Shown here: positions 29,374 through 59,938 of the stretch, piece after piece
Layout: every line of letters begins with the position of its first letter
Position numbering within the stretch: the first letter of the stretch is position 1
DNA from: a virus
DNA: 64,000 bases
Direction: 5' to 3' (one strand)
Virus record (IMG/VR): IMGVR_UViG_3300029571_000009
Span: 1 to 64,000 of that record
The notes under the pieces: model-generated
What the model saw: the letters and a program-made list of their open reading frames with translations, nothing else
What the model was told of the DNA's origin: nothing
The model's database searches: none
Translations under genes and position numbers: made by a program

Positions 29374-29616
29374 TTAGAATAATTCTGTAATTGTTCTCTT
29401 AATTCTTCTTTGTTCATATCGACACCTCGTCTTAATATTATCTATATCACTTATAAGAACATCTCCACCCTTAATTACCCACATACACTGATAATCTTTC
29501 TCAGCACAGAGCTTGGTAAAATCAGCATATGATTGATACTTATCTGGCTTTGCCATAGCTCTATAACATTGTTTTCTATTCTGACAACTTTGGCTTGTAC
29601 ACATTGTTATATCCAT
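29374..29616 (-). CDS. hypothetical Cys-rich protein
   Basis: 80 aa ORF. Confidence 0.4.
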   Translation of the reverse strand: MDITMCTSQSCQNRKQCYRAMAKPDKYQSYADFTKLCAEKDYQCMWVIKGGDVLISDIDNIKTRCRYEQRRIKRTITELF

Positions 29617-31052
29617 TAAGCAGCTCCTCCATTTGCATTGACGAAATTATCAAAACTTCTCTTCATATATTTGAAATTGACTTCCTGCGAAGGACTGAGA
29701 TTCTGCCACTTTCTTGACTGACAATTTTCAATCCATTTTCCTAATTCAACATCTCTATCGCATTTGTAAGCATAAGCAGTTAAAGCCATTAATGCTATAG
29801 AACACTGCTTGTATAATTCAGAATCAATGTTTACATATGAATCCATAAAATCCTGATATTCTTCAATATCTTCATTTGATACATCTTTTGAAACATTATT
29901 CTGAATAAATTCAAGCGTTGAATCTGATTCACACGACTTTGTATCAGACTCATTTATATTATTCTCTGTTTCTGAATTAGTTTCTTCTGTAATATGTAAA
30001 TATTCCTTCATAAGCTGTTCGAGCATGTTAAGTTTTGCCTTAACAACTTTCTTATCTTTAGTTCCCTTACCATCATCATAAGTATCGAAACTCTTATTCT
30101 CATATTCTACAAATGTCTTGCTATGTAATGTTTTCTGAAACTCTTCAAGAAAATCAATAAATTTAATATCTTCAATTCCAAACTGTGTAAATGTATGAAA
30201 AGCAGCGAACCATATAAATGAATTTTTTGAATTAAACAATTTACCTACTGTGTCTTGATCAGTAATCTCATACAACCTATTGAGTTCATTCTCAAATACC
30301 TCAAATTCATCTTTCGTTGCATTTTCATTAAGATACAAACTCATTTGTTTTGATTTCTTCCAGTTATCAAGATGAAACATAGTCATAATAGATTCACACA
30401 CAATTCTGTTAAATACTTCCTTTGTATCTTCTTTTGGATTATAATTTCCACAATCCATAAAGAAACGATTGCTGACGAGTTTTTTTATCTCAGGTGCTAT
30501 CTTCCAAGCAACCAAAATATTTTTCTGATTTACATTCATACTTGTCTGTCTGTTATATCTTGCAATATGATAGGCTATTTCTTCATCTGTACAATCAAGA
30601 TGTTTGACTATATCAACAGCATAACTATCGAATTTTTCCTTTAATTCATCTGGTAAATCTTTGTATTTTTTACCTCTAAGATCATATTTAATAACTCCAA
30701 CTTTTCCATTCTCATCAACTCCTTGATAGTACATAATTGGCATTTCAAGACTCTTCTTAATTTCAAAAGCATTATTCTTAAATGATTCAAGAACAGTTAA
30801 TCTCTGCAATCCATCAATAAGCCAAAGAATGAACTCTGTCGAGCTTACAATCTGCTCACATATTTTAATGGAATCAATATCCTCTCCTTTGATTATAGTG
30901 GCAGCAAGTCCTGACTTTGCCTCATCTGACCATTGATCAGGCTTTCTCTGCAAAGGATGATTCTTATTAATCTGACCTCTTTTAAACTGATTAAGTAATG
31001 TTCCTAACATCATCTGATCTTTTTTAACTTTGTCTCTTCCCACCATTGTCAT
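29616..31052 (-). CDS. DUF262-type ParB/sulfiredoxin-fold protein (GmrSD N-terminal domain-like)
   Basis: IDGLQRLT motif, a variant of the DGQQR signature, in the N-terminal third; long C-terminal extension. Confidence 0.6.
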   Translation of the reverse strand: MTMVGRDKVKKDQMMLGTLLNQFKRGQINKNHPLQRKPDQWSDEAKSGLAATIIKGEDIDSIKICEQIVSSTEFILWLIDGLQRLTVLESFKNNAFEIKKSLEMPIMYYQGVDENGKVGVIKYDLRGKKYKDLPDELKEKFDSYAVDIVKHLDCTDEEIAYHIARYNRQTSMNVNQKNILVAWKIAPEIKKLVSNRFFMDCGNYNPKEDTKEVFNRIVCESIMTMFHLDNWKKSKQMSLYLNENATKDEFEVFENELNRLYEITDQDTVGKLFNSKNSFIWFAAFHTFTQFGIEDIKFIDFLEEFQKTLHSKTFVEYENKSFDTYDDGKGTKDKKVVKAKLNMLEQLMKEYLHITEETNSETENNINESDTKSCESDSTLEFIQNNVSKDVSNEDIEEYQDFMDSYVNIDSELYKQCSIALMALTAYAYKCDRDVELGKWIENCQSRKWQNLSPSQEVNFKYMKRSFDNFVNANGGAA

Positions 31053-31069
31053 AACTTGTTTCCTCCTAA

Positions 31070-31711
31070 TTAAAATAATAATGATATGTATTCATATTTT
31101 CTTAACCCTGATAAACAATCATTGTATTCATTTGCAGTTATATGTAATATTTTCAATATCTCATCTTTTGTATATTGTTGAGATAATAACCTCGCTACCC
31201 TTTCCTGTTTTCGTGGTAATTGCTGTAAATATAACTCAACCTTGTCAGTATATTCTTCTGTGAATATTTCTCTTTCTACATTCTCTCTTGAAGGTAAATT
31301 CTCTTTAATACTTTTCACCTCATCTGTATTAACATCCAATGAGACATTCATAATAATTTGAGGATTACCCTTTTCATCAAGAATTAGTTTTCCATTTTCG
31401 TCCCTTAAGAGATTCTGACGCTTTAACCTATATTTGTTGTCTCTCATCCATGTGCTTGTCTTTCTTGCAATATTACCCGTCAGAAAAGTTTCAAAACGAG
31501 ATTTATTTTGATCAAATGAGACTACTGCTTCCATAAGACAATCCATTGCCACCTCATATAAATCATCGTATTCACTAACTTCAACTTTTCCATGCCAAAT
31601 CTTATGACATATTCTTTTTAATTTTTTGTTTTCGTTGTCTGAATAATCATTAATAATTTTCATCATTTCAGGATTATTGTTAATAACCCTCATCATCTCT
31701 TCATTAATCAT
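31070..31711 (-). CDS. sigma-70-family sigma factor (phage-encoded)
   Basis: region 2-like DLYEVAMDCLMEAVVSFD and region 4-like HTH near the C-terminus (QERVARLLSQQYTKDEILKILHIT). Confidence 0.6.
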   Translation of the reverse strand: MINEEMMRVINNNPEMMKIINDYSDNENKKLKRICHKIWHGKVEVSEYDDLYEVAMDCLMEAVVSFDQNKSRFETFLTGNIARKTSTWMRDNKYRLKRQNLLRDENGKLILDEKGNPQIIMNVSLDVNTDEVKSIKENLPSRENVEREIFTEEYTDKVELYLQQLPRKQERVARLLSQQYTKDEILKILHITANEYNDCLSGLRKYEYISLLF

Positions 31712-31904
31712 TTCTTCTACCCGCCTTTTGAATTTCTTTATTCATATATTCCCCGAAAGACAATTCAGAATTCATAATTTTAATATGCTTAGTTTCTCTT
31801 TTACATTTTGGACACTTACAATATCTATTATGTCGATTTCTTTCTCCTGGTTGAAAACTCATAGTCTCTACCATAGGAATTAAACAGTTTCTACATATCA
31901 CCAT
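31704..31904 (-). CDS. zinc-ribbon protein
   Basis: CRNC...CKCPKC. Confidence 0.45.
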   Translation of the reverse strand: MVICRNCLIPMVETMSFQPGERNRHNRYCKCPKCKRETKHIKIMNSELSFGEYMNKEIQKAGRRND

Positions 31905-31906
31905 AA

Positions 31907-32575
31907 TTAATCCTCCAATATATCATTAGCCATTTTCCAATATTCCGTTCTTCCTTTGTAATCATCGCTAGTGACTTTACTAAGTTCTAATTTTATCTTC
32001 TCGATGTTGTATCCTTTGACTATCGCATCTTGCATAACCTGAACGTACCTTATACATTGCTTTATTCGTTTATGCTTATCTCGTATATCATCAAGTAAAT
32101 ATCCTATCTTTGCTACCTTATGAGCTTGTGGTTTCTTACCATTATGTATTTTCTTATATTTTTCTAATGCATGATTAATATCACTCTCAGCACTATCACA
32201 CTTTGACAACTCCGTATTTAATAAATTTTTATATGTTATAAGTTGATTGTCGTCCCAACCCACTAATCCCAAAATGGAATTAGCTTCTGATTCAATCTTG
32301 TCTAATAAGGCATAATCAAAATTATTTTTATCTCCTATATAGATATCTGCATTTCCTCTATAATAAAGAGATTTATCAGACTTCTGCCCCGTATCCACAT
32401 CAATAAGATTATATTTCTTAATCCATGAATACTTCTTTCTGCTGTTCTGTACTAATGACCTCGCTTGTTTGTAAGTAAACTCCTTTGCCATAGAACTCGA
32501 AGTCGTTATCATATACTCACCTGACTTCATAGGATTCTCCATAACATAATTTTTTCCATCTGTTAGAATAAACAA
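31907..32575 (-). CDS. hypothetical protein
   Basis: 222 aa ORF. Confidence 0.5.
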   Translation of the reverse strand: MFILTDGKNYVMENPMKSGEYMITTSSSMAKEFTYKQARSLVQNSRKKYSWIKKYNLIDVDTGQKSDKSLYYRGNADIYIGDKNNFDYALLDKIESEANSILGLVGWDDNQLITYKNLLNTELSKCDSAESDINHALEKYKKIHNGKKPQAHKVAKIGYLLDDIRDKHKRIKQCIRYVQVMQDAIVKGYNIEKIKLELSKVTSDDYKGRTEYWKMANDILED

Positions 32576-32663
32576 AAAACATCACTCCTCTCTGATTTTT
32601 GACGCACTTTAATAAGCCTTGGGTATACCAAAGAAAAATTAAAATGCTATTAAATTGTTAAAA

Positions 32664-32684
32664 TTTGGAAAAATTCTGCGAATG
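32664..32684 (-). promoter_or_regulatory. copy of conserved intergenic motif (TTTGGAAAAATTCTGCGAATG)
   Basis: motif match, upstream of 31907..32575. Confidence 0.3.
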
Positions 32685-32876
32685 CATTGATTTTTATATA
32701 ATTGATATGTATAATTTAAATGCGTACTAGTCTTTTTCCCCCAAGAAATAGATTTTGTATGTTGCTTGACTAGAAAGTTGGTAGCTGGCTAGTCAAGCAT
32801 TTTTTATTTTCTTTTCCATTATATTACTCCGAACATGTGTTTGTGTCAATATAAATTCGAACAAAAATTCGAGAAA

Positions 32877-33173
32877 TTATCTTAGCAAAATATCATGCAT
32901 AATTCCCTTCTTAATAATATTTTTTATGTCCTGTTCGACATTAAATAGTTGCATATGAGGAATGTACTCATCCTCATTCACAATTATTGTTTTTGATTTT
33001 CTAACTAATAAGCACCCATCATCAGGTGTTGCAATTTTCTTTGAAGAAGTATTATTATCAAAATCCATTGTAAGTATTACTACATTCTTAGGATTTTTCC
33101 CTTCAGCTTTCAGCTTTTGTAATCTTTCAATTGCTTCGTCAATTGAGGTATAATCATATGTTTCTGTCTTCAT
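32877..33173 (-). CDS. hypothetical protein downstream of the MazF-like toxin (candidate antitoxin in reversed gene order)
   Basis: 98 aa ORF 18 nt after the toxin gene. Confidence 0.4.
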   Translation of the reverse strand: MKTETYDYTSIDEAIERLQKLKAEGKNPKNVVILTMDFDNNTSSKKIATPDDGCLLVRKSKTIIVNEDEYIPHMQLFNVEQDIKNIIKKGIMHDILLR

Positions 33174-33191
33174 GATATTCTCTCCTCTCCC

Positions 33192-33542
33192 TTATATCAA
33201 AGCCAAACTTATTTTCATCGCTTCCATAACCTTTAAACTATCTTCAGCAGATAATTCACCAATTTTAAATTGAATCCGATCTTTATCAATCGTTGTAATC
33301 TGCTCTAATGCCACAACAGAATCATATTTTAGTCCATTAAGCTCATCTTTATGTATTTCTACATGTGTTGGCAATTCTCTTTTAGACTTGGTTGTTATAA
33401 TGGCAATTATAGTGGTAGGGCTAAACTTATTGCCAATATTGTTTTGCAATATCAGTACCGGTCTTTTACCACTCTGTTCTGAGCCTTTAGAATCGTATTT
33501 AGTTATATCAGCGAAATATATTTCACCACGTTTAATTTCCAT
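33192..33542 (-). CDS. mazF: MazF/PemK-family endoribonuclease toxin
   Basis: RGEIYFADI...GSEQSGKRPVLILQNN signature, 116 aa. Confidence 0.7.
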   Translation of the reverse strand: MEIKRGEIYFADITKYDSKGSEQSGKRPVLILQNNIGNKFSPTTIIAIITTKSKRELPTHVEIHKDELNGLKYDSVVALEQITTIDKDRIQFKIGELSAEDSLKVMEAMKISLALI

Positions 33543-33668
33543 TATGTTAGCCCTCCTTTCTCTGTTTGTCCCTTTTGATATTTTATATAATACATCATAT
33601 TATAATATATGTCAACATATATTATTGATTAATATATTATTTTTTACTATAATACAAATAAATAATAT
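33543..33668. promoter_or_regulatory. divergent promoter/operator region between the MazF operon and the XRE HTH gene
   Basis: AT-rich; inverted repeat AATATAT-TATTGATTA-ATATATT; several TATAAT-like hexamers. Confidence 0.4.
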
Positions 33669-33890
33669 ATGAAGAGGTGCTATATGTACAAGCTTAATGT
33701 AAAAAATCTTTTAGATGCAAAAGGTAAAACACAATATTGGCTTTCTAAACAAACAGGGATATCCGCAAATAATGTAAGCAAAATCTATAATGGAGAAACA
33801 ATCAATATTAGACTTGATACAATTAATAAATTGTGTGAAGCATTAGAATGTACACCATGCGAATTATTTATTAAGGACGATACAAAATAA
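33669..33890 (+). CDS. XRE-family HTH transcriptional regulator (Cro/CI-like)
   Basis: LSKQTGISANNVSKIYNG helix-turn-helix. Confidence 0.7.
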   Translation: MKRCYMYKLNVKNLLDAKGKTQYWLSKQTGISANNVSKIYNGETINIRLDTINKLCEALECTPCELFIKDDTK

Positions 33891-33904
33891 CTTTGTATCA
33901 TCCT

Positions 33905-35152
33905 TTACATATTGTTTAACACATCTTTCATCCCCACTGCACCATTTGCATAATTATTAACTGTTGTATTTACATTACTATGTCCTAACTGCTGCTGTAC
34001 AAATGCAAGATTTCCATTTCTGTTCATTATACTAGCATAATAATGACGCATCATATGTGGTGTTATACCATTTCCATAATTCTCAAATATCTGTTTGATA
34101 TTTCTTTCTGTTGTACGAGTTCCATTTTTATTTACAAACACAGCTTCTGTATCAATAATGTTACTTAATGTGCTTCTGTATTCTAACCACTCTCTTATAG
34201 CTTTTAAAGCAGATCCGCTAAGATATACCATTCTATTTTGCATTTCTCTGTACACACCTTTACCAAGAATAGTAATATAAGGCATTTCTTCATCTAAATG
34301 CAAATTAGATAAATCCAAACCAGCAAGTTCAGATTCTCTTATTCCAGTTCCTCTTAATACTCGAAAAATAGCAATATTTCTATTTCTTACTGAAATATCC
34401 TTTTTCCACATTATTTTTTCTTCCATATCATTAAGTTGCTTTTCTGTTGGAAGTTTTTTAGTTAACTTGTTTCCAGATGGAATCCCTTTATAAGTTACAT
34501 CTTTAAAGAATCCATCTTTAATTTCAGTTCCCTTCACTCTACTCATATAATCCCAAAAACTACTTATTATATGTTTTCTAGTTTCTAATGTCGTAGGTGA
34601 CATTCCATTCTGTTCTTTAGTCTTTAAATATAACGTGATATCTTCTGCCATAATGTCAGTAAAATCTGATGGCTCAATATCTGAAATATTTGTTTTATCA
34701 ATAAGTTTCTCTTCAATAAACCAATTGAGCAAATCTACAATAACTCCAAGATAATTTAAAGCACCTGCTTTACTTTCAATTTTAACAGTGAAATATTTTC
34801 TCATATATATAGGAAAATTTAACTCATCCAACTTCCTATTAAGCTTTTCAGCATTTTTGTTTGTACTTCTATTTTGTAACACATATTCATCAACCTCACT
34901 TTCATATTCGTCTATGTAATAATTCTCTCTTTTTATCTTTGCAGCCTCAAAAATTTCTTCATATGAATCACAAAATCTTACTTCGATACACTTCGTTACC
35001 TCTCCGCACTTCAAACAATACAAATCTTTAATATGTTTTCGTTCTCTTTGTCTCTGTCTCTGAATTCCACTGGCTAACATATTTTCATTCATACATTTCA
35101 TACATATGAATCTGCTTGCATGTTTTGGATTTCCATTCTTATATCTACTCAA
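33905..35152 (-). CDS. tyrosine integrase/recombinase with N-terminal zinc ribbon
   Basis: C-terminal HMMRHYYASIMNRNG...LGHSNVNTTVNNY (R-H-R-Y catalytic region); N-terminal CMKCMN...CLKCGE. Confidence 0.75.
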   Translation of the reverse strand: MSRYKNGNPKHASRFICMKCMNENMLASGIQRQRQRERKHIKDLYCLKCGEVTKCIEVRFCDSYEEIFEAAKIKRENYYIDEYESEVDEYVLQNRSTNKNAEKLNRKLDELNFPIYMRKYFTVKIESKAGALNYLGVIVDLLNWFIEEKLIDKTNISDIEPSDFTDIMAEDITLYLKTKEQNGMSPTTLETRKHIISSFWDYMSRVKGTEIKDGFFKDVTYKGIPSGNKLTKKLPTEKQLNDMEEKIMWKKDISVRNRNIAIFRVLRGTGIRESELAGLDLSNLHLDEEMPYITILGKGVYREMQNRMVYLSGSALKAIREWLEYRSTLSNIIDTEAVFVNKNGTRTTERNIKQIFENYGNGITPHMMRHYYASIMNRNGNLAFVQQQLGHSNVNTTVNNYANGAVGMKDVLNNM

Positions 35153-35173
35153 AAATTATTCACCTCATTTCCG

Positions 35174-35204
35174 CAATAAAAAAGAAGCAGGTATTTCTGC
35201 TTCT
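35174..35204 (-). terminator. rho-independent terminator after 35260..36060
   Basis: 8 bp stem AGAAGCAG/CTGCTTCT with a 6 nt loop, followed by a T tract on the minus strand. Confidence 0.55.
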
Positions 35205-35259
35205 AATACTTGTTTCTATATTTGATTTGTTTTCAATAAGAAAGCAATTTTTCTTTGGG

Positions 35260-36060
35260 TTATTCTTCTAACATTTTCTCAACTTTATCAAGGTGTGACT
35301 GATCCATTGACTTTCCAGTTCTATTGAGCATTAAGAAATATTTTAATACTGCCCTTCTATCTGCTTCTCTTACTTCCCCTTGTACAATATGATGGTTTAA
35401 GAAAACATTCTTATCTTTAGCCGATAAGTCATTGTAATAAACTCCGTTATATGGAAATCTATTCTCGTAAAAATCAATAATTGTGCTTAATCTCTGCTTA
35501 CCATCAAGTATTTCATATCCATTACCCGTCTCAGTCCATTTCTTATCATCCAAATGAATAAAAGCAAATTTACCTATATCAATATTGTTAAAAATACTGT
35601 CTATAAGCAACTGTTTATCTTCTAACTCCCATACATATCCTCTCTGATATTCAGGATTCATATCTACTCCAAATGCATAATATTTATGGATAAGAGACTC
35701 AATCATTGAATTGATAAAATTGATTTTTACATCCTGATTTTTACTAAACCTTGAATCCCCATTAGTAAGCGGTCTAACGCTAGTCCATTCAGCAACTCTA
35801 TATACTTCTCTATCATAAGGATTCCCATAATTTTCTTCAGTAGAAATACAATGTAATCCGTATACCTTTCCATCATATAACACTTCTTTTACTGTACAGT
35901 CTTTTAATGCACCATATTTTACCTTATCTCCTACTTCAAATCTATAAGTTGGTTCATTCAGATGTAACACTTCATCTTTAATAAAACTTAATCCATTTTC
36001 TCTTTCTTTCTGTAACTGTTCTTCTATGGTTAATTCTTTATTTACTTTCTTTCTCGCCAT
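35260..36060 (-). CDS. DUF262-type ParB/sulfiredoxin-fold protein
   Basis: LDGKQRLSTI (DGQQR-type motif) in the C-terminal half. Confidence 0.6.
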   Translation of the reverse strand: MARKKVNKELTIEEQLQKERENGLSFIKDEVLHLNEPTYRFEVGDKVKYGALKDCTVKEVLYDGKVYGLHCISTEENYGNPYDREVYRVAEWTSVRPLTNGDSRFSKNQDVKINFINSMIESLIHKYYAFGVDMNPEYQRGYVWELEDKQLLIDSIFNNIDIGKFAFIHLDDKKWTETGNGYEILDGKQRLSTIIDFYENRFPYNGVYYNDLSAKDKNVFLNHHIVQGEVREADRRAVLKYFLMLNRTGKSMDQSHLDKVEKMLEE

Positions 36061-36099
36061 TTAATCATCTCCTTCTATTTACCAAGAAATCGTCATTTA

Positions 36100-36297
36100 C
36101 TACACTGGTTTATATTTTTGACGATTTACTTTCTGTCTTTCTTCAATAATAAGATTCAAAACAATTGTTAGTCTCCTCTTTTCACTTGAGGAATCAGTCT
36201 CTCCATATATCTTAGTCAGTTTACCCTCATATTCTTGTTGTAAGCTGCACAATTCTCTTTCATATTCTATCAACTCTTTTAGTGTCATATTTATCAT
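36100..36297 (-). CDS. hypothetical protein
   Basis: start trimmed to the ATG at 36297 (GAGGTG RBS) to remove a 100 nt overlap with 36341..36628. Confidence 0.4.
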   Translation of the reverse strand: MINMTLKELIEYERELCSLQQEYEGKLTKIYGETDSSSEKRRLTIVLNLIIEERQKVNRQKYKPV

Positions 36298-36340
36298 TAT
36301 ATCACCTCGTTTCTTCTGCTCATTAATCAAATCCAATACT

Positions 36341-36628
36341 TCACATACAAAATTTTTGCCCACATTGAGGACAATATGTATTTGTAGAATATACATTACT
36401 ACCACAAATACCGCACTGATGTACAATTGTTGATTTTCCAAATAAGCTAAATTCTCTTTTATTATTTGTTGGAAATCTCTTTTGTTTTCTTACACATTCT
36501 TCTATGGTATCAATATTAGCCATTAAATCTTCAATATCACCAACTGCAATAACTCCATTTTCATTACTATATGCGATTTTAAATTGTTGTATGGATATCA
36601 ATGCCGCATTTATTTCTTCTTCATACAT
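36341..36628 (-). CDS. zinc-ribbon protein
   Basis: CGICGS...CPQCG. Confidence 0.45.
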   Translation of the reverse strand: MYEEEINAALISIQQFKIAYSNENGVIAVGDIEDLMANIDTIEECVRKQKRFPTNNKREFSLFGKSTIVHQCGICGSNVYSTNTYCPQCGQKFCM

Positions 36629-36638
36629 TTATATCACC

Positions 36639-36848
36639 TCAATTTCCTATTAACCAATCTCTTCCATCACAAGATTTGTGTTCTTGGACAATTTCATCAG
36701 TTAATTTTATATTTTTAAAAAGTCCACTATCAATTGCTGCACAACCATATGAACAATATTTATCTGTAAACCCAGTTCTTACAACAATAATTGAATTTTC
36801 AAGTAATGACTTACCACATTTAGAACACTCCATATATCTTTCCATCAA
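36639..36848 (-). CDS. zinc-ribbon protein
   Basis: CSKCGK...CSYGC. Confidence 0.45.
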   Translation of the reverse strand: MMERYMECSKCGKSLLENSIIVVRTGFTDKYCSYGCAAIDSGLFKNIKLTDEIVQEHKSCDGRDWLIGN

Positions 36849-37035
36849 TCACACCTCACTTCATTACTGACACATCAATAACATTTAATCCAGCATCTTC
36901 TAAATCCTGTTCAACACAATATCTCAATGTTTCTTCTGATGACTCATCATCATAGAATTCTCCTTCAACTTCTACAATAAGTTTTGCTTTTACCTTATTG
37001 GGGTTATTCATTGTTTTTGACATATGTATCACCTC

Positions 37036-37631: not shown

Positions 37632-38150
37632 TTAATTGAATGGCATATAGTCTTCGTCCTCTTCACCATTTTTCTTAAAAATATCGTCATCTTCTCCATT
37701 ATCAATACAAGTATCATAACCATCATTTCCTATTGTAAAATGTTGAAGAAAATCAACTTCAATAAAATTCGCCATTTCTTGAATTTTTCTTGTGATATTA
37801 ATATCATTTACACTTGCATCTTTTGAACCATTTGGATGATTATGAGCTACAATAAATTTATTCGCACCAGACAATAATAGAAATATTGCAAGCTCTCTCA
37901 TTTTTATTATAGAAGTATCTGCTGTTCCATGTGATAGTTCAAACACTCCTTGCGGAATCATTTGACAATTAAATGATATAATATAAACATATTCCTCTTC
38001 TAAATATTCCATCTCAAACGTTTTATTTAAAAAATCAATAATTTTATCGTATGTTGAAAAATCTGAATTCCATTGTATTTTTTCTTTTTCTTTTAAAATT
38101 GGAAAATTATTTTTCTTATTTCTAAACGTAATATATCTTTTAATTTCCAT
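37632..38150 (-). CDS. RadC-like JAB/MPN domain protein
   Basis: JAMM-like motif VAHNHPNGS with a preceding Glu and a downstream Asp. Confidence 0.6.
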   Translation of the reverse strand: MEIKRYITFRNKKNNFPILKEKEKIQWNSDFSTYDKIIDFLNKTFEMEYLEEEYVYIISFNCQMIPQGVFELSHGTADTSIIKMRELAIFLLLSGANKFIVAHNHPNGSKDASVNDINITRKIQEMANFIEVDFLQHFTIGNDGYDTCIDNGEDDDIFKKNGEEDEDYMPFN

Positions 38151-38164: not shown

Positions 38165-39187
38165 TTAAAAAATAGATTTAGCAATTATATCAGCAGCCAT
38201 ATCATTATACTGATTTAAATTATTTTTCAAATATATTTTTGTTGTTTCTGTTCTAGCATGTCCTAATAACTGCTGAACCACATATATATTTTCATCTGTC
38301 TTTTCCAACATAATATTAGCAAATGATGCTCTTAACTTATGGGGCGTTACCGAATATCCAAGAGCTTCCTTTGTGTATTTTATTACAATATCCGACAATG
38401 ATCTTTGTGTCATACGAGTTTTTGATTTTGAAATGAATAATGCATCTTCATTTTTATCTATAATTCTTTTTCGATCACTTATCCATTCTGAGACTGCATT
38501 TTCTAATTGAGAACTCATAGAAAATGTTTTTTCTTTATGTCCTTTCTCTATAACACTTTTAATAGAATGATTCTCAAAGTCGATATCTTCAATATTTATT
38601 TCGCTTAATGCTGTTTCACGTATTCCAGTTTGCATAAATAGCATCATAATTGCTCTGTCTCTCGATTTCCATTTATATTGCATAGCAACTGACCTTCTAT
38701 TTCCTGCTCCACATTCTACAGCCAATAGTACTTCTTTTAAATCATCTTCGTCTAAGAATTTTCTATTAACAAAATCTTCTCCACGAACCCTTTTTATTTT
38801 ATTCATAGGATTTTCAGTTATATAATCATTCTCTATTAAGAAATCAAAAAAACTTTTTAGTACACTATGATAACACTTCCTATAAGATAATGAAGATTGT
38901 TTTTTATTTCCATTGTTATCTGTTATATATTCTATTGAATCCAAAAAACGAGTAATATCAAACTTTGTTACTTCTGTAGCTTTAATATGTCTAATATCAC
39001 TCGAATCAATAAAATATAAAAATTTTGCTATTTTTCTTATATATTCTCTACATGCTGTTGGTTGCCTTCCTGATTTGAACTCATAATAATATTCAGTTAC
39101 ATATTGTGGTAATGTAGATAATATTTCTTTTATATTTTTTTCAATTTGTAATGAATGCTCTAATCTACCTTTCATTTTTATCACCAT
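38165..39187 (-). CDS. tyrosine recombinase (XerC/D-like or second integrase)
   Basis: C-terminal HKLRASFA...LLGHARTETTKIY catalytic signature. Confidence 0.7.
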   Translation of the reverse strand: MVIKMKGRLEHSLQIEKNIKEILSTLPQYVTEYYYEFKSGRQPTACREYIRKIAKFLYFIDSSDIRHIKATEVTKFDITRFLDSIEYITDNNGNKKQSSLSYRKCYHSVLKSFFDFLIENDYITENPMNKIKRVRGEDFVNRKFLDEDDLKEVLLAVECGAGNRRSVAMQYKWKSRDRAIMMLFMQTGIRETALSEINIEDIDFENHSIKSVIEKGHKEKTFSMSSQLENAVSEWISDRKRIIDKNEDALFISKSKTRMTQRSLSDIVIKYTKEALGYSVTPHKLRASFANIMLEKTDENIYVVQQLLGHARTETTKIYLKNNLNQYNDMAADIIAKSIF

Positions 39188-50470: not shown

Positions 50471-50471
50471 A

Positions 50472-52242: not shown

Positions 52243-52563
52243 TTTTTATACCTCCTTTAATCTTGCATCACGCATAATCCGTGAGATTTCGTTTTCTGTT
52301 TTTGCGTTATGAATCTGCATTATCACTTCATCCGAATAACACAAATCTCTTGCTGTTGTAATTGTCGTTCTCTTGTAATTGTAGGTTTCTTTTGACATAG
52401 TTATATTCTCCCTTCTTTATTTTACAAAACCCGAATATTGAGCTTTAATAATTGTGTCGTCATAGATGATATCTGTATAATTGTCGTACATTATTAATGA
52501 GCAGATATCTCCCTTGATCCAATCTTCTGTCTTTGCAGTTTGCTTTGGGTGCTTTCTTGAATA

Positions 52564-52821
52564 TTATAATTCTTCTAAGTCTGCAAGATTATGTCTGAAT
52601 CTTGTTCGACTATTGGTTTTACTGTCTACAACAGTATATTTCCCTTTCTCTTCATTGATATAGAATCCATCTTTGTTTACTTTTGATGTTTTCCATTTAT
52701 AGCCTTCGTTTTCACATTCTTTCCATGCCACCTTTTCGGCATTTACTGAATACTGCCTTTTAAGTTCTTCTTTGTTCATAGTATTAACCCTCCTATATAA
52801 TTTATATTTTATTTTCGACAT
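52564..52821 (-). CDS. hypothetical basic protein
   Basis: 85 aa ORF. Confidence 0.4.
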   Translation of the reverse strand: MSKIKYKLYRRVNTMNKEELKRQYSVNAEKVAWKECENEGYKWKTSKVNKDGFYINEEKGKYTVVDSKTNSRTRFRHNLADLEEL

Positions 52822-52830
52822 TAAATGTCA

Positions 52831-52911
52831 ATGTGCTTGTAGGAATCGAACCTACTGATAAGTATAATGTTGTTAGCATTATATTATTCACCACATATAA
52901 GCACAAATAAG
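52831..52911 (-). ncRNA. tRNA-like element (degenerate tRNA or tRNA-derived fragment)
   Basis: perfect T-arm GTAGG-TTCGATT-CCTAC; acceptor TGTGCTT/AAGCACA; candidate anticodon stem TAATG/CATTA with loop CTAACAA (would read AAC); D-arm does not fold canonically. Confidence 0.3.
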
Positions 52912-53943
52912 ATAAGTAGCCCTCACATCCTCTGTTATATATTCACTTATTTCCTATTAGGTAGACCTCAAACATTAAATGGTATATTCACTTATTACTT
53001 ATCATCAGGTGACTAACCCTTATGCAGTCAACAGTTTATTATTTTAATTCGCTCCAACTGTTACGAATACCTTACACTGTTTTATACAAACCGATTGCAA
53101 GACATACGGTTTTATCAGTGACATTATTCTCGAACTGATTACAGAATATACTATCAACCTAGTTACACTAGACAGTAGGATTTATAGGCAGGGATTGTAC
53201 TGCTCATACCTCATACACGAATGTAGATAGATACATTCAACATTAGTGTTACCACTAATTCTTGTGTATTGTTCCACTAGCAACTTTTCAAATAACCAAG
53301 CATAAGTTTTCATCGTTTTACCGAAACGCCAGTCGCTAACTATATACTGAGCTATCGAATCATTGTTAATTTTTATGATAGTGAATTGTGTCAATCACTC
53401 ACTATATTTGTACCAAGATGCTATGTGATAGTGTTTACACACTATGTATTATGTACTTGCCACCAGCCACCACTTTTCATGCGCTGTTCACCAAGTTTTC
53501 CCGAATATAGAGTTTATATTCGCTGACCTAGCCACTTGGGAGTGCTCCGTAACACCCTTGTCAGCCCTATACGACATCTCCTCGTTTATGGTTCTCGCAA
53601 ACCACACCCTTGACCGTTCAATCATATGTATTCTTGTAGTGTTGTGCTGATAGTTTAGAGCAGAACATCTACTTGTCCACAAAACCTGAAGTCTATCGTC
53701 ACCTACTTATTAACGCACACCTCCTAACTAGGTTGTATTTTGTGTAAGTGTATTGATGTCGTGTGTAGGTTAATCACACTAGAATACACATACAGTAACC
53801 TTTATGCATTGCGTCTTTAAATTTTGGGTGACTTTAATAGACCGTTTGGGAAGAACTGTCGTACCTCTACGGCTTATCACGGTTTTATTTGTATTGCGTT
53901 TAATGTTATGTATTTTTATTGACTTATGGGTTGAGTAAAAAAG

Positions 53944-54047
53944 AACCCTATCTTGACGAAAATGTAAGTCAAAAATAGGGTTGATGATGGAGAACCCATC
54001 ACAAAATGATGATGTAGATTTTGTGACCTACCCACTCAAAGAGTGGG
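53944..54047. other. cluster of three perfect hairpins inside the ORF-free 52.9-54.1 kb island
   Basis: H1 AACCCTA...TAGGGTT with nested TTGAC...GTCAA (53944-53982); H2 TCACAAAAT-gatgatgtag-ATTTTGTGA (53999-54026); H3 CCCACTC-aaa-GAGTGGG (54031-54047). Confidence 0.5.
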
Positions 54048-54089
54048 TAACGCACTAGGCTTGACACGGTTTATACTCGCCTAGTCGAG

Positions 54090-54527
54090 TTATTTAACCA
54101 TACGGCTCTGCTGATTATCCATGAATTTTGTAGCATCTTCAGCAGACTTGAACTCGTAAATCTGCACATACTTGTCATCCTTTGCAAGTGCGTCATATGT
54201 CTTGTTGCCCTTGCCAAGCTTAGTTGCACCAAAGTCTTCGGTCGCAGACATCTTGATGGCAAACCTAGCCTTGCTTGACAGAAATGCACCCTTGATTGTA
54301 CGGACGAACTTGCCATCGCACTCAAGAGAGCCGACAATCCGTGTAGACTTCTTAGATGCTGTCTTAGGCTCTGACTTAGGTGTTGTGTCTTTAGGTGTCT
54401 CTGTCTTAGGCTGTTCAACTGCTCCAAGTCCTAAGAGTTTAGCGATTTTCTGTGCTTCTGTAGCGTTAATCTGATAAGCTACTCCATTAACGATAACTGC
54501 ATTCTTTAATTCTTTCATAATTACCAA
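54090..54527 (-). CDS. hypothetical protein; first gene of the leftward block, GC-richer than its neighbours
   Basis: 145 aa ORF; track start is TTG, an in-frame ATG lies at 54516 (MKELKN...); alternative frame 54071..54427 rejected. Confidence 0.5.
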   Translation of the reverse strand: MVIMKELKNAVIVNGVAYQINATEAQKIAKLLGLGAVEQPKTETPKDTTPKSEPKTASKKSTRIVGSLECDGKFVRTIKGAFLSSKARFAIKMSATEDFGATKLGKGNKTYDALAKDDKYVQIYEFKSAEDATKFMDNQQSRMVK

Positions 54528-54739
54528 CCTTTCTGTCTCATCTTAGAGACTTAAAAAAATATTTTTTGTTCACTGAACTGCTCGTCAGCCGTTCAGCTTG
54601 GCTACACCTTATCACAAAAAAATTCTGCTTGTTTCGGTGCAAAACTTCCAAAAATGCTTATTTTTCGTGGTTTTGAGTATGGCGAGAATGGGGGTGGCAA
54701 AAACGGATTAAACCCTTATGAAATGTAAAACCAGGTATA

Positions 54740-55545
54740 GCAGGTTTATTTACACACCAAGTCAAAAAATTTTTTATTAAAAATAAATTATCTTATTCTC
54801 AATCCATTAAATCCCCAATAAAATCAAGCAAAATCCCAATTTTCCCATCTCAAATCCCTTATCGTACCCCATATCGCTCAAACCTACTAACCAAGCCACT
54901 TTCACCCATCTTACAATCCAAAAATCAAACTTTCATTTCATCAAAAATTCACTCACAAATCCAAAATTATCCTTATTTATAAGCACTTTTACCGATAACC
55001 ATTTTTAATCCAGAATCATCATTATAATCAATTACATAAATCATAAATCTCTAATCAACAATAAGGGGGCTACATAAAAACCACATCAAAAAATCTAAAA
55101 TTACCTATATACATCACAAAAACAGCCAAAAAAATCCAATACAAACCATAAAAAAATCCTACTATAGCAATACTCAAAAATTCCATTTCTCATCTAAACC
55201 CTCTATCACGCCCATACACAGTCTTTTCATTCCACCCTACCAATAATACCTAAAATCATTTTTACCCACCTAAATGCTCAAAATACAAGGTCAATTTTTT
55301 ACATCACCCAAAATTACATTAACTATCTATATACATTCACATACATTTACTATAAATAATATTATCAATTCTCACGCCTATATAAAAATCCACTCTCACA
55401 GCTCAAATTTCAATTTTTACCCTCTACCCTAACAACTAGCCACCTGACATATAAAAATCCAAAATAGACTCAAAATCATACATTTTTTGCCTTATATCCC
55501 ATGTAAAGAATTTTATCTTAAAACAAATTTAAAAAAGAGAATATA
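54740..55545 (+). other. about 0.8 kb G-depleted (C+A-rich) noncoding tract at the strand-switch point; candidate origin or early-promoter/Rho-utilisation region
   Basis: no ORF of 60 aa or more on either strand; strong strand asymmetry on the plus strand (very few G, abundant A/C); repeated ATATAAAAATCC-like words. Confidence 0.45.
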
Positions 55546-55581
55546 AAATTGTATAAAACACATTTCTAAGGAGGGTTTCAA

Positions 55582-56556
55582 ATGAATACATATTTAATAC
55601 CAACAACAGCAGCATATTGTTATGAACCATATGATTACATTTATTTTGTTTATGCTGATACACCACAAGAAGCTTATATAAAAGCATGTACGAAATTACA
55701 AGGAGAATATATACCACTTGAATCACAAGAATATGAATTATATCCATTTAAATTGTACAAGCCAGATGATACAGATATTTTCCCGTTCCATGAATCAAGA
55801 AAATATGATATACTTACAGAAGCATTTAAAAATACAGAAGGAGCAGAATATATGGCGTATTTCAATGTAAACTGGAATGATTATATAGAAGATCTAATTA
55901 AAATAGCAGATAAAGAAAATTGGTCTAATGATACATACCCTAATAATAAAATTCTTACAAATTATATGGTTCACACATATAAAAAATTATCTTCTGAAAA
56001 GAACGTAATTATTAATAATGAATATGCACTATTTAACACAGGACTTTTTACCGAATTCTATCAACCAATATACGCATATCAAGATAAAAGCAAAAATGGA
56101 TTAAAGTTTCTTACATCATATGATTTAGGAAATATGAATATTTCTGAACGCCCACCAAGAGCAAATTATTTTGATGATCCATCTCTCTTATTATTTGATT
56201 GGCACTACGAAATAAACATTAATTATAAACATATATTGAAAGATATTAATAATATTGAAAGAATTCCCGAAAAGCTTAAAGATAGCAAAAATATTCTTAA
56301 CAATCTCAATGGTTCAATAGAAACTATGAAGAAGCGAGTATCAGCTAATTATAAATTGGCAATACCACAATATTATGAAAACAAGATTCAGTTATTACTT
56401 CCATTATGCTTAGAGGATGATACTACTCCGTCATTAGCCTTAACCGTAACTAAAGTAGGAAATTATTATCAAGGTCACACATGTTTAACACTTGATATGG
56501 CATATAATAATGCTCGTCTTATTGCAAAACCAGAATCTAACTGGTTATCAATATAA
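55582..56556 (+). CDS. hypothetical protein; first rightward gene
   Basis: 324 aa ORF with an AAGGAGGG RBS. Confidence 0.6.
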   Translation: MNTYLIPTTAAYCYEPYDYIYFVYADTPQEAYIKACTKLQGEYIPLESQEYELYPFKLYKPDDTDIFPFHESRKYDILTEAFKNTEGAEYMAYFNVNWNDYIEDLIKIADKENWSNDTYPNNKILTNYMVHTYKKLSSEKNVIINNEYALFNTGLFTEFYQPIYAYQDKSKNGLKFLTSYDLGNMNISERPPRANYFDDPSLLLFDWHYEININYKHILKDINNIERIPEKLKDSKNILNNLNGSIETMKKRVSANYKLAIPQYYENKIQLLLPLCLEDDTTPSLALTVTKVGNYYQGHTCLTLDMAYNNARLIAKPESNWLSI

Positions 56557-56577
56557 ATCAAATAAACATAAAAAATT

Positions 56578-56610
56578 AACAGGCGGTAATTAAGCTGTCT
56601 GTTTTTTTAT
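56578..56610 (+). terminator. rho-independent terminator
   Basis: hairpin AACAGGCGG...GCTGTCTGTT followed by T7. Confidence 0.55.
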
Positions 56611-57144
56611 TGCATAAATTTATATTATTCTCCACTATTCTATTTAAAAATTCATAAATTCAAATTCATATAAGAGAATAATCTATTGTAAATAATCATC
56701 ACACCACTCTTGCCAAACAAAAAATAATAAATTTTAAAGGAGGACTCATTATGGGTGGGTAACTTAACATTAATTACAACAGAAACATTTAATAACTTAT
56801 CATGTAACTTTTATAGAAATATATTTGATGAATTAGCATATTAAATCACTTCTCAATCTATTTAGGGAGAAAAAATCACACCTCACAGAAAAAATTAGCC
56901 ACTTTTATCTCATACCCTTATAAGTTATCACCTAAGACATAAAAATTGAAATTCACCCTCAAAATCGTTAATTTACTCCACAGATAGGGGGTATGAGAAA
57001 ACTATATACAAGCTCAAAAAGATAGTATGTGCGTAAGCACAAGATGTAGCCCTTTGATAAGGGCGGTCTTTTCGCAGCGTTAGCAAGAAAAGAACATCTG
57101 TGGGATAGACAATTGAAGAGAATAATATATCAAAGGAGTAATCT

Positions 57145-57423
57145 ATGATACAAGATGATATATCAAAATATCTTAAACAAAAAGAAAGCAATATTTCAAA
57201 GAGCAATCGCAAATCAAGGCACAAACATCAATATAAAGAATGTTTAATTCAATTTCCGATTGCATTTACAGGGAAAACATTCATAAACACAAAGTTATAT
57301 GGATATTGTTCCATCTGTGGAAAAATAGGTTCAGTTAAGAATGGAAAATTTAAAGCTGAATTAGAGCAATTAGAAAAATCAAGACAAGGTAACAATAGTT
57401 TTCTTATTGCTATATCAGGTTAA
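57145..57423 (+). CDS. hypothetical basic protein with CxxC
   Basis: 92 aa ORF with an AAAGGAG RBS. Confidence 0.45.
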   Translation: MIQDDISKYLKQKESNISKSNRKSRHKHQYKECLIQFPIAFTGKTFINTKLYGYCSICGKIGSVKNGKFKAELEQLEKSRQGNNSFLIAISG

Positions 57424-57544
57424 AAAATATATGAAAGATATCATAATAAGTTACCTATATTTTTTATTGAAGATTCATTTGCTGATTATGTTGTTTTAGA
57501 AAAAGAGAATAATACAGAGAATAATTCAAAAGGAGAATGATATT

Positions 57545-57751
57545 ATGAAAAAATCAATTTTATTTAAAAGAACAAGAAAATCCGTTGCCAAGAAACTATC
57601 TAATCATATTTATATAGATATTATTAATAGCCATGATACAAAATTAATAATAGATAACTTCACATTATTAGAACTTATTTATATTGAAAGAGCATTAAAG
57701 AAATTGGATTCTATGTCAGAAGAAGAAATTCAAGAATTAAATATAGAATAA
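57545..57751 (+). CDS. hypothetical protein
   Basis: 68 aa ORF with an AAAGGAGAA RBS. Confidence 0.45.
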   Translation: MKKSILFKRTRKSVAKKLSNHIYIDIINSHDTKLIIDNFTLLELIYIERALKKLDSMSEEEIQELNIE

Positions 57752-57760
57752 TTTCACATA

Positions 57761-58004
57761 GGTACATCTCATATGTACCCAAATGAAAACGTTAATCAAA
57801 AACACCATGTACCTAAACCAATCAATAACAATCAAACAAAAAATTATAGAGCTTGTATGAAGCGTAAGCGAAATACAAGCGTAATATTCTTCTCTTGATA
57901 ATATGAGTCTATATAGATATTGACCTACACAAATCCACACCTGACATGTACCCAAATGAAGAAAATTTTTACTTTTGGGTACGTCATACATGTACCCAAA
58001 TGAA
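57761..58004. repeat. iteron/palindrome cluster: three direct copies of ATGTACCCAAATGAA (57773, 57946, 57990) plus inverted partners GGTACAT (57761) and TTTGGGTAC (57974)
   Basis: exact 15-mer repeats read in the sequence; copies 2 and 3 are 44 bp apart; partial fourth copy CATGTACCTAAACC at 57806; lies just upstream of the parB-like gene. Confidence 0.6.
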
Positions 58005-58141
58005 TTTTTGACAATTTCATATAAATGCAATTTTTAATGTTTGTGCGAATTCAAATGGAGAATATACTATTAAACCACTTATTACACACTCTCGCACAAA
58101 ATTGTAACTGTAAATTATGTTTTAGAAGAAAGGATTTTAAA

Positions 58142-59089
58142 ATGCAACAGAAAGAATTAAAAATTGATCCTGAATTAAGGGATTTACTACCACCACTTAC
58201 AGGTGATGAGTACAAACAACTTGAAAAGAATATTGTAGAAAATGGATTTGATAAGAATTTTCCTATTATGGAATGGCATGGTTATATTGTAGATGGTCAT
58301 AATCGCTACTCTATTTGCAAAAAACACAATATTGATTATGTTGTTGGTACTCTTGGATATGAAACAAAAGATGAAGTTATGGAATGGATGTTGGATATTC
58401 AGCTTGGCAGACGTAATTTATCACCTATTCAAAGAATTGCTGTAACTGAGAAATATAGACCTATTTACGAGAAACAAGCAAAAGAGAATTCATTAAATAA
58501 TTTAAAACAGAATCAAACTGCCGACAAGTCAAATTTGACCAATCGAGAATTTAAATCAACAAATAAGAAACTTGCAGATATAGCAGGTGTTAAACCAACT
58601 ACATATAAGATGGGTGCAAAAGTTCTTAATTCAGATAACGAAGATTTAAAGCAGCGTGTTTTGTCAGGTGAAACTTCTATTAGTGCTGGTTATAAGGAAT
58701 TACAGAATGAAAAGAAAAAAGAACAATTCTCTGATAATCAAAATGAAGAATATAATATTGAGCAACCAACTACATCATCTTCTATTGTTCAACCTTCTCA
58801 AAAAAATCAAGTCAGCGAAGAAGTAAGACAAATATGTGAAGACCTTAAAACCGAAAAGTCAAAAGAGTATCTTGATTCTATTTGGGATTATAAGATTGAT
58901 ATAATCGAATGTATGAATATTGGATTTGAAAGATTTTATGATGGGTTTGTTAGTATTCTTAGTGATATGGAAAATCGTGTAACCAAATCAGAATTAGATG
59001 AATGTATTGCCAATGCAGAGAATAATATAACGAAACTATTAACTGCTATTGAGTTAGCAAAAAAAACAACATTAAAAACGGAGGATTAA
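58142..59089 (+). CDS. ParB-like partition/nuclease-domain protein
   Basis: canonical ParB box YIVDGHNRY plus an HTH-like segment; start taken at the ATG at 58142 with a GAAAGGA RBS rather than the longer track ORF. Confidence 0.65.
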   Translation: MQQKELKIDPELRDLLPPLTGDEYKQLEKNIVENGFDKNFPIMEWHGYIVDGHNRYSICKKHNIDYVVGTLGYETKDEVMEWMLDIQLGRRNLSPIQRIAVTEKYRPIYEKQAKENSLNNLKQNQTADKSNLTNREFKSTNKKLADIAGVKPTTYKMGAKVLNSDNEDLKQRVLSGETSISAGYKELQNEKKKEQFSDNQNEEYNIEQPTTSSSIVQPSQKNQVSEEVRQICEDLKTEKSKEYLDSIWDYKIDIIECMNIGFERFYDGFVSILSDMENRVTKSELDECIANAENNITKLLTAIELAKKTTLKTED

Positions 59090-59092
59090 ATA

Positions 59093-59938
59093 ATGAAATT
59101 AAAAGACTTAGTAAAAGGAACAAAAGTAACAGACAATAAGATTGCACATAAGGAAGTACCAATTGATAAATTGGATGCAATGCTTAATTATCAGAGAGAT
59201 ATTGATATGAAGCGTGTTGAAAGACTTAGTAGTGATGAGTATTTTGATGAAAATGAGGTTGATGAAGTAAAGGTTAGCGTTAGAGAAGATGGTTCTATGA
59301 AAGTATGTGATGGTCAGCATACTATTGCAATTTTAAAGATGAGAGGATGGACGACTGTACCGTGTGAACTTCGTTATGGTTTAACTATTGAGGAAGAGAA
59401 TGATTGGTTTACCATAACTAATACAAAAGAAAAGCCACAGAATAGAAAACGCACACTTACATCTCAGATTAATGGTACATATGAAAAAAATAAGATTGAA
59501 CAGGATTTTAATAATTGCATAAAAGCACTTGGCTTTAAGTTAGATATTTTTGGAGAAGAACCAGGAAATGATTATAAAATTAAGTGTCCTGCAAAACTAT
59601 TAGATATGTATAAGGAATATTCGTCAAGAAATGACGTAGATGGCTTTATTGAATGTATGGATTTAGTCAAGGGCTGTTGGAATGGAAATTCAAAATCATT
59701 GCAGTGGAATTATATTAGGGGAATGTTTGACTTTTATGAAACATATAAAGGTATTTTTGACAATAAGAGACTTATTACTTCTGTCGGGAAAAAATCCCCA
59801 TCTATCATTAAAGAAATTGCAGATAATGATAAATATACAAAGAAACCATCTTTAAAATATGCAAAGATTTATGTAAATGAATACAATTCTGGTTTAAATA
59901 AGAACAAAAGATTAAAAATGTCCTTATTAGAAGATTAA
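59093..59938 (+). CDS. ParB/DndB-like DGQH-motif protein
   Basis: VCDGQHTIAIL motif (DGQHR-type); begins 4 nt after the parB-like gene. Confidence 0.5.
   Translation: MKLKDLVKGTKVTDNKIAHKEVPIDKLDAMLNYQRDIDMKRVERLSSDEYFDENEVDEVKVSVREDGSMKVCDGQHTIAILKMRGWTTVPCELRYGLTIEEENDWFTITNTKEKPQNRKRTLTSQINGTYEKNKIEQDFNNCIKALGFKLDIFGEEPGNDYKIKCPAKLLDMYKEYSSRNDVDGFIECMDLVKGCWNGNSKSLQWNYIRGMFDFYETYKGIFDNKRLITSVGKKSPSIIKEIADNDKYTKKPSLKYAKIYVNEYNSGLNKNKRLKMSLLED

Follow-up and report, generated by a model that had tools for sequence, protein, structure and literature searches.

ParB/Srx-fold genes of a probable temperate Lachnospiraceae phage and the linkage of one of them to a sigma factor gene

What use might a phage have for several ParB/Srx-fold proteins, scattered over one region of its genome and without an evident effector? 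The question is raised by the viral record IMGVR_UViG_3300029571_000009, of which positions 1 to 64,000 were analysed (this whole 64,000-nucleotide stretch is called the window below), and in which a first-pass annotation had pointed out five genes with variants of the DGxxR box of this fold. We identified six such genes, labelled P1 (29616-31052), P2 (35260-36060), P3 (50735-51667), P4 (58142-59089), P5 (59093-59938) and P6 (62572-62880). We favour, with moderate confidence, a reading in which these are conserved core genes in separate modules, encoding nucleoside triphosphate (NTP)-gated DNA-binding regulators of phage transcription and replication. What is new and testable in this finding is the coupling of P1, a DUF262 protein, to a phage sigma factor; this coupling had been overlooked in the first-pass annotation, as had the sixth gene, P6.

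Family membership and independence of the six genes

The five open reading frames (ORFs) singled out earlier all translate with the motifs quoted for them, and each was placed in the ParB/Srx superfamily by profile or structure evidence, making a chance occurrence of the motifs unlikely. A loose DGxxR/T regular expression matched seven of the 253 ORFs, five of the seven being P1 to P5, which indicates that even the motif alone is fairly specific. The six proteins are assigned to three branches of the superfamily, DUF262 (P1 and P2), DndB/DUF6551-like (P3 and P5) and ParB-N (P4 and a degenerate P6). The Box II arginine is kept in P1, P2, P3 and P4, replaced by threonine in P5 and missing in P6. 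This last and minimal member (plus strand, 102 amino acids, aa) was recognised by a match to phrog_26377, 'ParB-like partition protein' (3.4e-5); its motif is degenerate (LIDGYCSY, or LISGYYSY in one relative), and the gene is conserved in many loci, 2.5-3.5 kb downstream of P5.

Two roles had been suggested for such proteins, as NTP-dependent nucleases or as modification-sensing or DNA-binding regulators. The second is still a reasonable reading. For the first, the C-terminal DUF1524 or HNH domains that it would call for were sought in Pfam, NCBIfam and PADLOC, and neither these nor any other nuclease domain was found in the five proteins or in P6. In the same collections no DUF1524 or HNH match to P1 or P2 appeared at E<=0.1; P2 passes the Pfam GmrSD_N cutoff and P1 is sub-threshold, but the C-terminal DUF1524 His-Me nuclease that defines the GmrSD, BrxU and SspE type IV restriction enzymes is missing from both.

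The proposal that the genes together make up one undescribed system does not hold either. The six lie in at least four separate modules or transcription units, with P1 to P5 spread over 30 kb, and they occur independently in other phages: Staphylococcus phage StB12 and Heliusvirales phages have the P4-P5 pair without the others, and the 176-kb gut phage MT835469 has P1- and P2-like genes without P3 to P5. Within 7 kb of the latter (MT835469.1, 26795-33596) we identified four ParB-like genes, encoding a 150-aa VDGWHRY protein with no family match, a minimal DUF262 protein, a sigma-DUF262 fusion and, beside that fusion, a homologue of P6 whose domain is fused to DUF5839; a further DUF262 gene lies at 154 kb. 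The presence of multiple ParB-fold paralogues is thus a trait of related phage lineages, and not an oddity of the window.

Shared IMG/VR contigs carry P1, P2, P3 and P5 together, at 42-61% identity, indicating that they behave as core genes, and such behaviour fits control of transcription or replication better than accessory defence or anti-defence. In the mechanism that we propose, each protein would have a ParB-fold domain that binds NTP, joined in some to a DNA-binding domain, and would lack an effector nuclease.

P1 and the sigma factor gene upstream

P1 (minus strand, 478 aa) is a stand-alone ParB-DUF262 protein with a helical, ParBDB-like region, an NsnA/DndB-like architecture; its residues 8-352 match positions 45-383 of 385 in the PADLOC NsnA profile (E=2.6e-17). 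NsnA of the Menshen system joins ParB-DUF262 to a DNA-binding domain, 'ParBDB', and serves as a DNA sensor (PMC12065111). P1 shares this layout (PMC12065111), with QRxxxW-like and DGxQR motifs (LQRKPDQW and IDGLQR) followed by the helical domain, and its residues P33, Q35, R36, W41, I79, D80, G81, Q83 and R84 are invariant in relatives down to 24% identity. At its C-terminal end the protein has an acidic linker and a short helical stretch, and no histidine occurs in its last 125 residues. That two of the proteins are of the DUF262 type, as first proposed, is borne out by the position of P2 above the GmrSD_N cutoff and by the full-length NsnA match of P1, which lies below that cutoff; both proteins match phrog_1583 and phrog_2598, and a hidden Markov model of P1 relatives retrieves P2 at 3.3e-8. 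P1 differs from the Menshen NsnABC system in having no adjacent NsnB ABC ATPase or NsnC effector, and is instead a phage-encoded core gene coupled to a sigma factor.

The gene that lies 17 nt upstream of P1 (31070-31711, minus strand, 213 aa) encodes a phage sigma-70-family factor, with matches to phrog_351, 'RNA polymerase sigma factor' (2.1e-10), to Pfam Sigma70_r2 (6.8e-5; 23.0 bits, just under the cutoff of 24) and, for region 4, to FliA in the PDB (E=0.0013). The neighbourhood of P1 in the window consists of this gene, an 80-aa ORF and an SPFH protein gene. Among IMG/VR loci with upstream sequence, a sigma homologue stands directly upstream of the P1 homologue in 78 out of 78, ending about 20-65 nt ahead of it, while P1 identity falls to 39%, sigma identity falls to 27% and the flanking genes vary.

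In MT835469 the two genes form a single 765-aa ORF. Its N-terminal part matches a sigma-factor PHROG, and its C-terminal part aligns with the whole of P1, the residues of the QR...W and DGxQR motifs being invariant. The fusion ORF of this sister clade is uninterrupted in 24 independent IMG/VR loci, one of them just 42% identical, indicating that it is not an assembly error. Together, the conserved adjacency and the fusion are strong genomic evidence that the sigma factor and P1 act jointly.

From this linkage, from the NsnA architecture (PMC12065111) and from a bacterial ParB-fold+Sigma70 fusion that binds ATP (bioRxiv 10.1101/2025.10.10.680097), we infer that P1 may act, bound to DNA in an NTP-gated manner, as a cofactor of the phage sigma factor. 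It would be a physical partner of the sigma factor encoded upstream of it, and would exert NTP-gated control over the sites or the timing of transcription by the phage sigma-RNA polymerase holoenzyme. The bacterial fusion comes from a survey of the ParB-CTPase fold, seeded with PF02195, which also describes ParB+DUF6551 and ParB+methyltransferase combinations in phages and does not mention DUF262 (bioRxiv 10.1101/2025.10.10.680097). A ParB-fold/Sigma70 link and methyltransferase fusions are common to that survey and to our data, but here the sigma partner is DUF262/NsnA-like, is found in a phage and is held in a strictly conserved operon or fusion. Our search of the literature on DUF262 proteins with sigma factors returned no relevant paper.

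The P4-P5-initiator operon, P2 and P3

P4 (plus strand, 315 aa) has a ParB N-terminal domain, a helix-turn-helix (HTH) and a conserved C-terminal domain, and its start at 58142 is backed by a 100%-identical 315-aa database protein. It matches phrog_12047, 'ParB-like partition nuclease', at 1.6e-9. A profile of 48 diverse relatives aligns over 167 columns with CST185 of Clostridium phage c-st (hhalign, 98.1% probability, E=8.4e-14), a protein with a GERR Box II that passes Pfam ParB_N (33.8 bits versus 26.3); none of the 48 members themselves gave a ParB_N match at 1e-3 in the Pfam scan, so the link to that family runs only via CST185. The P4 family numbers 11,886 representative clusters at E<=0.001, and residues D51, G52, R55, Q87, R91 and N92 of P4 are invariant in the 48 members. 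Relatives fused to MT-A70 or N6_N4 DNA methyltransferases exist, and those in LE1 and c-st adjoin helicases.

The ParB-like regulators KorB and VirB provide, with canonical ParB, a comparison for P4. P4 resembles them in its ParB N-domain with a Box II-like DGHNR (within VDGHNRY) and a Box III-like QLGRRNLS, followed by an HTH. It differs from canonical ParB in lacking a ParA partner in the window, a TIGR00180 match and, at its N-terminus (MQQKELKIDPEL), the ParA-binding LG[KR]GL motif, and in being always paired with a DUF6551 protein within a replication or early operon.

That partner, P5 (plus strand, 281 aa), starts 3 nt after P4 and matches Pfam DUF6551 (PF20188) over profile positions 6-232 of 242 (94.8 bits versus 26.8, 7.5e-27), placing it among DndB/DGQHR-like ParB-fold proteins. 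P4 and P5 are adjacent in 22 of 22 IMG/VR loci; the pair also occurs directly after cI/cro in StB12, which has a serine integrase, beside integrases in Heliusvirales phages, and on several contigs of gut phages. The Box II motif of P5 is CDGQHT, (D/N)GQHT is found in nine of ten aligned homologues, and the StB12 homologue has DGQHR. The Box II arginine is reported to be required for NTP binding (10.1101/2025.10.10.680097), and its replacement by threonine suggests that P5 may have lost this activity. Phage ParB-fold+DUF6551 proteins are reported to bind CTP or ATP (bioRxiv 10.1101/2025.10.10.680097).

The third gene of the operon (59958-60743, plus strand, 261 aa) begins 19 nt after P5 and encodes a replication-initiator-like protein with a DnaD/Rep-like HTH, matching phrog_428, 'replication initiation protein' (5.5e-7), phrog_8102 (7.8e-5) and the DnaD-like phrog_186 (1.7e-4). 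The operon is mosaic. The N-domain of P4 is 85-97% conserved, whereas its HTH region is 50-64% identical in seven of the eight relatives compared, and at loci where P5 is 99.6% identical the accompanying P4 reaches only 80%, the divergence lying mostly in the HTH region. This pattern suggests that recombination may swap DNA-binding specificity.

Upstream of P4, at 57774-58004, we identified a repeat cluster with three exact copies of TGTACCCAAATGAA (57774, 57947 and 57991) and an inverted GTACCCAAA at 57974, all in the 250 bp ahead of P4; four of the five GTACCCAAA copies in the window fall within this cluster. The repeats are kept in divergent relatives that have a homologue of the initiator-like gene, and are missing in exactly the four loci without one, where P4, P5 and the same HTH variants are retained. 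Their presence goes with the initiator gene and not with the HTH variants of P4, and so they look like initiator sites rather than parS; they are probably binding sites, as candidate iterons or operators, for the initiator-like protein. The GTACCCAAA repeats as parS for P4 are disfavoured, since they do not co-vary with the recognition helix of P4.

The 58 kb pair had been singled out as the one that looked like partition or replication proteins, and the replication half of that suggestion is the better supported. Partition is a weak reading, given the absence of Walker-A ORFs in the window, the integrated state of relatives and the presence of the pair in integrating phages; the lack of a ParA and the integrated lifestyle make a role in replication or early regulation likelier. 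From about 55.6 kb onward the genes are on the plus strand, and the sign of the GC skew switches near there, at about 56-58 kb. At this divergent, skew-switching region P4 and P5 would act jointly and early on phage DNA, in the organisation of an origin or of early promoters, and would not form a ParABS partition machine.

P2 (minus strand, 266 aa) is a minimal DUF262 protein. An N-terminal domain of about 105 aa without family assignment is followed by the DUF262 core (YQRGYVW, LDGKQR), where the protein ends, with neither a ParBDB nor a nuclease domain. Residues 122-231 match positions 3-112 of 199 in Pfam GmrSD_N (68.7 bits versus a cutoff of 33.2, 9.8e-19), and in PADLOC the protein matches the N-terminal part of NsnA (1.1e-17) and PD-T4-2_A (1.5e-9). 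In relatives it lies 4-7 kb upstream of the sigma-P1 pair on the same strand, and is followed by a tyrosine recombinase in 31 of 34 loci and by a MazF-like gene in 26 of 34.

The recombinase next to P2 in the window (33905-35152, minus strand) varies between 49 and 95% identity among otherwise close relatives, which suggests cassette exchange. The MazF-like growth inhibitor gene (33192-33542, minus strand) matches phrog_1936 at 2.5e-29, and between the two lies a small plus-strand gene (33669-33890), called by eye from its MT835469 homologue as an XRE-type HTH repressor-like gene. Homologues of both small genes are kept beside the P2-like gene of MT835469, whose 176-aa DUF262 product (Pfam GmrSD_N, 1.2e-13) is encoded at the same relative position without a recombinase, and the pair may be a lysogeny or toxin module. 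The role of P2, as a minimal DUF262 protein beside this putative lysogeny module, is probably regulatory. A second tyrosine recombinase gene (38165-39187, minus strand) adjoins RadC (37632-38150), and both recombinase genes lie in the middle of the phage genome.

P3 (minus strand, 310 aa; motif VDGYGRW) is a DndB-like two-domain protein, with a ParB/Srx N-domain and a helical C-domain, placed by a predicted structure similar, along its whole length, to a phage 'sulfur modification protein'. No Pfam model covers its family, and phrog_1033 is common to P3 and P5. It is the first gene of appreciable size in the leftward operon and stands opposite a DUF3825 gene across the ORF-poor 52.9-55.5 kb. 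The same arrangement occurs in a Lachnospiraceae metagenome-assembled genome from goat cecum, which was the one real relative that the P3 profile retrieved from a genome collection; in phages, tblastn with P3 gave no match. As a conserved partner of P3 we considered the downstream 158-aa ORF, which is only loosely kept (38 of 67 loci); the other neighbours vary. In our proposal P3 would be a DndB-like protein heading its operon.

DndB regulates the dnd phosphorothioation operon, and DpdB is a related DGQHR member. The likeness to these proteins lies in the structure model of P3, in a weak match of P5 to the DGQHR domain (TIGR03187, 6e-5; 22.9 bits versus a cutoff of 58.85) and in the StB12 homologue of P5, which also touches the GmrSD_N and DndB profiles. 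The motifs differ, being DGQHT in P5 and DGYGR in P3 rather than DGQHR; both proteins fall under the curated DndB/DGQHR cutoffs (TIGR03187/PF14072), P3 with no match at all, and no dnd, ssp or dpd modification genes were found among the window ORFs scanned.

Phage context and competing explanations

The window is most likely the regulatory and replication half of a temperate Lachnospiraceae phage of about 150-180 kb. It has 30% GC, and almost all genes up to about 52.8 kb are small and on the minus strand. A public assembly collection indexes the exact P1 protein in 456 blocks, including a 365-kb contig from a cultured isolate and human-gut contigs of 236-318 kb, while IMG/VR contigs with the same genes are mostly 110-200 kb. 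Homologues also lie within contigs of 1.0 and 1.86 Mb, indicating that the element is normally an integrated prophage, and the named hosts are Lachnospiraceae only. In a megablast against INPHARED phages, 26 kb of the window gave no match, and no near-identical phage was found there.

Profile scans returned the gene set of a large phage: methyltransferases, a nicotinamide adenine dinucleotide (NAD)-salvage cluster, an RNA ligase, an HNH gene, a sliding clamp, RadC, the two tyrosine recombinases, the SPFH protein and three tRNAs. The DNA methyltransferases, all on the minus strand, are a C5 enzyme (26182-27105), D12 enzymes starting at 25399, 19525, 18733 and 10591, an N6_N4 enzyme starting at 20851 and a weak Eco57I-like match starting at 6337. 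Six are thus clear and one is weak, which lowers the count of eight in the first-pass annotation to six to seven. The minus-strand genes for NAD synthase (12778-13521), a NAMPT-like protein (13923-15425), a Prs-like phosphoribosyltransferase (15388-16224) and an isochorismatase/nicotinamidase-like protein (16228-16740) form an NAD+ salvage or reconstitution cluster (12778-16740) similar to phage counter-defence against NAD-depleting systems; in a Bacillus phage, Prs and NAMPT genes adjoin the DUF262 gene. An RNA ligase gene (PHA02142 OB-fold and RNA_ligase) adjoins the HNH endonuclease gene (7146-9088, minus strand), and the pair may serve counter-defence of the tRNA-repair type.

The stretch of about 2.6 kb at 52900-55500, beside tRNA-Val (52831-52905), has no convincing ORFs and is a candidate origin or regulatory region. 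Within it, in the ORF-poor DNA separating the divergent operons, we identified a Pistol self-cleaving ribozyme (54022-54090, minus strand; Rfam RF02679, 60 bits versus a gathering score of 34.5, full-length model match), immediately 3' of a doubtful ORF (54090-54527). No Walker-A motif, classical or deviant, occurs in any ORF of at least 50 aa in the window, indicating that neither ParA nor Menshen NsnB is encoded within these 64 kb. A complete lack of the classical GxxxxGK[ST] form is unusual given the replication genes in the region.

Could the proteins be anti-defence decoys? Effector-less P1, P2, P3 and P5 would then mimic the sensors of host GmrSD, Menshen, Dnd/Ssp or PD-T4-2 systems, poisoning them through mixed oligomers or occupying modified phage DNA. 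The full-length NsnA match of P1 without NsnB or NsnC, the PADLOC matches of P2 to PD-T4-2_A, HEC-05/06 and SspE N-domains, the six to seven methyltransferases with the NAD-salvage cluster, and the Bacillus phage DUF262 gene next to Prs and NAMPT genes all speak for it. We nevertheless consider it unlikely, since the genes are conserved core genes at fixed positions and not variable accessory ones, and since it leaves no place for the strict pairing and fusion of P1 with the sigma factor; P2 or P3 individually may have a decoy role. Less likely again is a partition module, with P4 as the centromere-binding ParB, P5 as an accessory and the GTACCCAAA repeats as parS, by which the prophage would persist as a plasmid. 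In its favour are database entries named, for instance, 'putative chromosome-partitioning protein', the ParB-N and HTH of P4, the kinship of P4 with ParB-like proteins from c-st and LE1, both plasmid prophages, and the repeats immediately upstream of the P4 gene. Yet the window holds no Walker-A ATPase, P4 has no N-terminal LG[KR]GL motif (definition from 10.1101/2025.10.10.680097), relatives lie integrated within contigs of Mb size and two tyrosine recombinases are present, the same pair follows cI/cro in the integrating phage StB12, the repeats go with the initiator gene, and the c-st gene is separate from the upstream FtsZ-like gene.

More doubtful still is a prophage-encoded defence, in which one or more of the proteins would be a superinfection-exclusion sensor with an unrecognised neighbour, for example the MazF-like toxin near P2, as effector. 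DUF262 sensors are common in defence systems (PMC12065111), and P2 belongs to a conserved block with the tyrosine recombinase, the XRE-like gene and the MazF-like gene, but P2 and the MazF-like gene are not adjacent, the distance and the genes between them vary, and no known system architecture was matched in PADLOC. Least probable, and very unlikely in our view, are NTP-dependent nucleases directed against unmodified host or competitor DNA, with the phage protected by its own methylation. This idea draws on DUF262 being the sensor of the GmrSD, BrxU and SspE nucleases, on the many methyltransferases and on the annotation of some ParB/Srx domains as 'nuclease'; it is at odds with the lack of DUF1524, HNH or other nuclease domains in all six proteins, with the histidine-free end of P1, and with the sole HNH gene (8384-9088) being separate, small and 20 kb off.

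Several points weigh against the reading of the six as core regulators. All functions proposed here are deduced from architecture and linkage. Some ParB/Srx-fold proteins, such as Osa and pNOB8 ParB-N, have been reported to have nuclease activity of their own, so a missing nuclease domain does not fully exclude cleavage. The window covers 64 kb of a genome of about 155 kb, and a ParA or an effector could lie elsewhere; moreover, the ParB-fold genes sit among methyltransferase and NAD-salvage genes, a setting typical of anti-defence regions too. P4 has no direct curated-family match in Pfam or NCBIfam, including TIGR00180, and the match of P1 to Pfam GmrSD_N (E=0.0023) is under the cutoff. The AlphaFold2 model of P1 came from a shallow alignment, with a pLDDT (predicted local distance difference test) of 43, and was not used, which leaves the PADLOC NsnA profile as the sole basis for the helical domain of P1. 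When the profiles of the P1, P3, P4 and P5 families were compared pairwise, nothing significant emerged. The motifs do align in register in profile-profile alignments (P3-P4, P3-P5, P4-P5 and P1-P5), at non-significant scores that we do not count as evidence, and PDB searches with the P1, P2 and P4 sequences and the P1, P3 and P4 family profiles returned nothing meaningful.

In late transcription of T4, the gp55 sigma factor works with gp33 and the gp45 sliding clamp. By analogy, sigma-P1 might be a new transcription device, in which the sigma factor is tethered, by a shared operon or by fusion, to a DUF262/ParB-type NTP-gated sensor or clamp that loads on phage DNA, possibly sensing its heavy methylation, and so delivers the holoenzyme to the phage genome or restricts it there; P2, P3, P4-P5 and P6 would then be its sister switches, serving the same phage in lysogeny, in the early operon and at the origin. 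We give this extended version a small chance. What the two cases would share is a phage sigma factor tied to a family known for NTP-gated DNA clamps; there is no sequence relationship between them, and clamp behaviour of DUF262 is hypothetical.

ParB-fold NTPases are emerging as general DNA-gated switches, far beyond chromosome segregation. DUF262 domains have so far been known mainly as sensors of anti-phage nucleases. The phage clade described here is very common in human gut metagenomes and has six effector-less ParB-fold proteins as core genes. Our results also call for caution before phage 'ParB-like partition proteins' are annotated as partition factors. The linkage of P1 to a sigma factor joins the bacterial fusion (10.1101/2025.10.10.680097) as a second case of ParB-fold/sigma coupling, independent of the first, and leads to a concrete, testable hypothesis, that a stand-alone DUF262 protein would control transcription.

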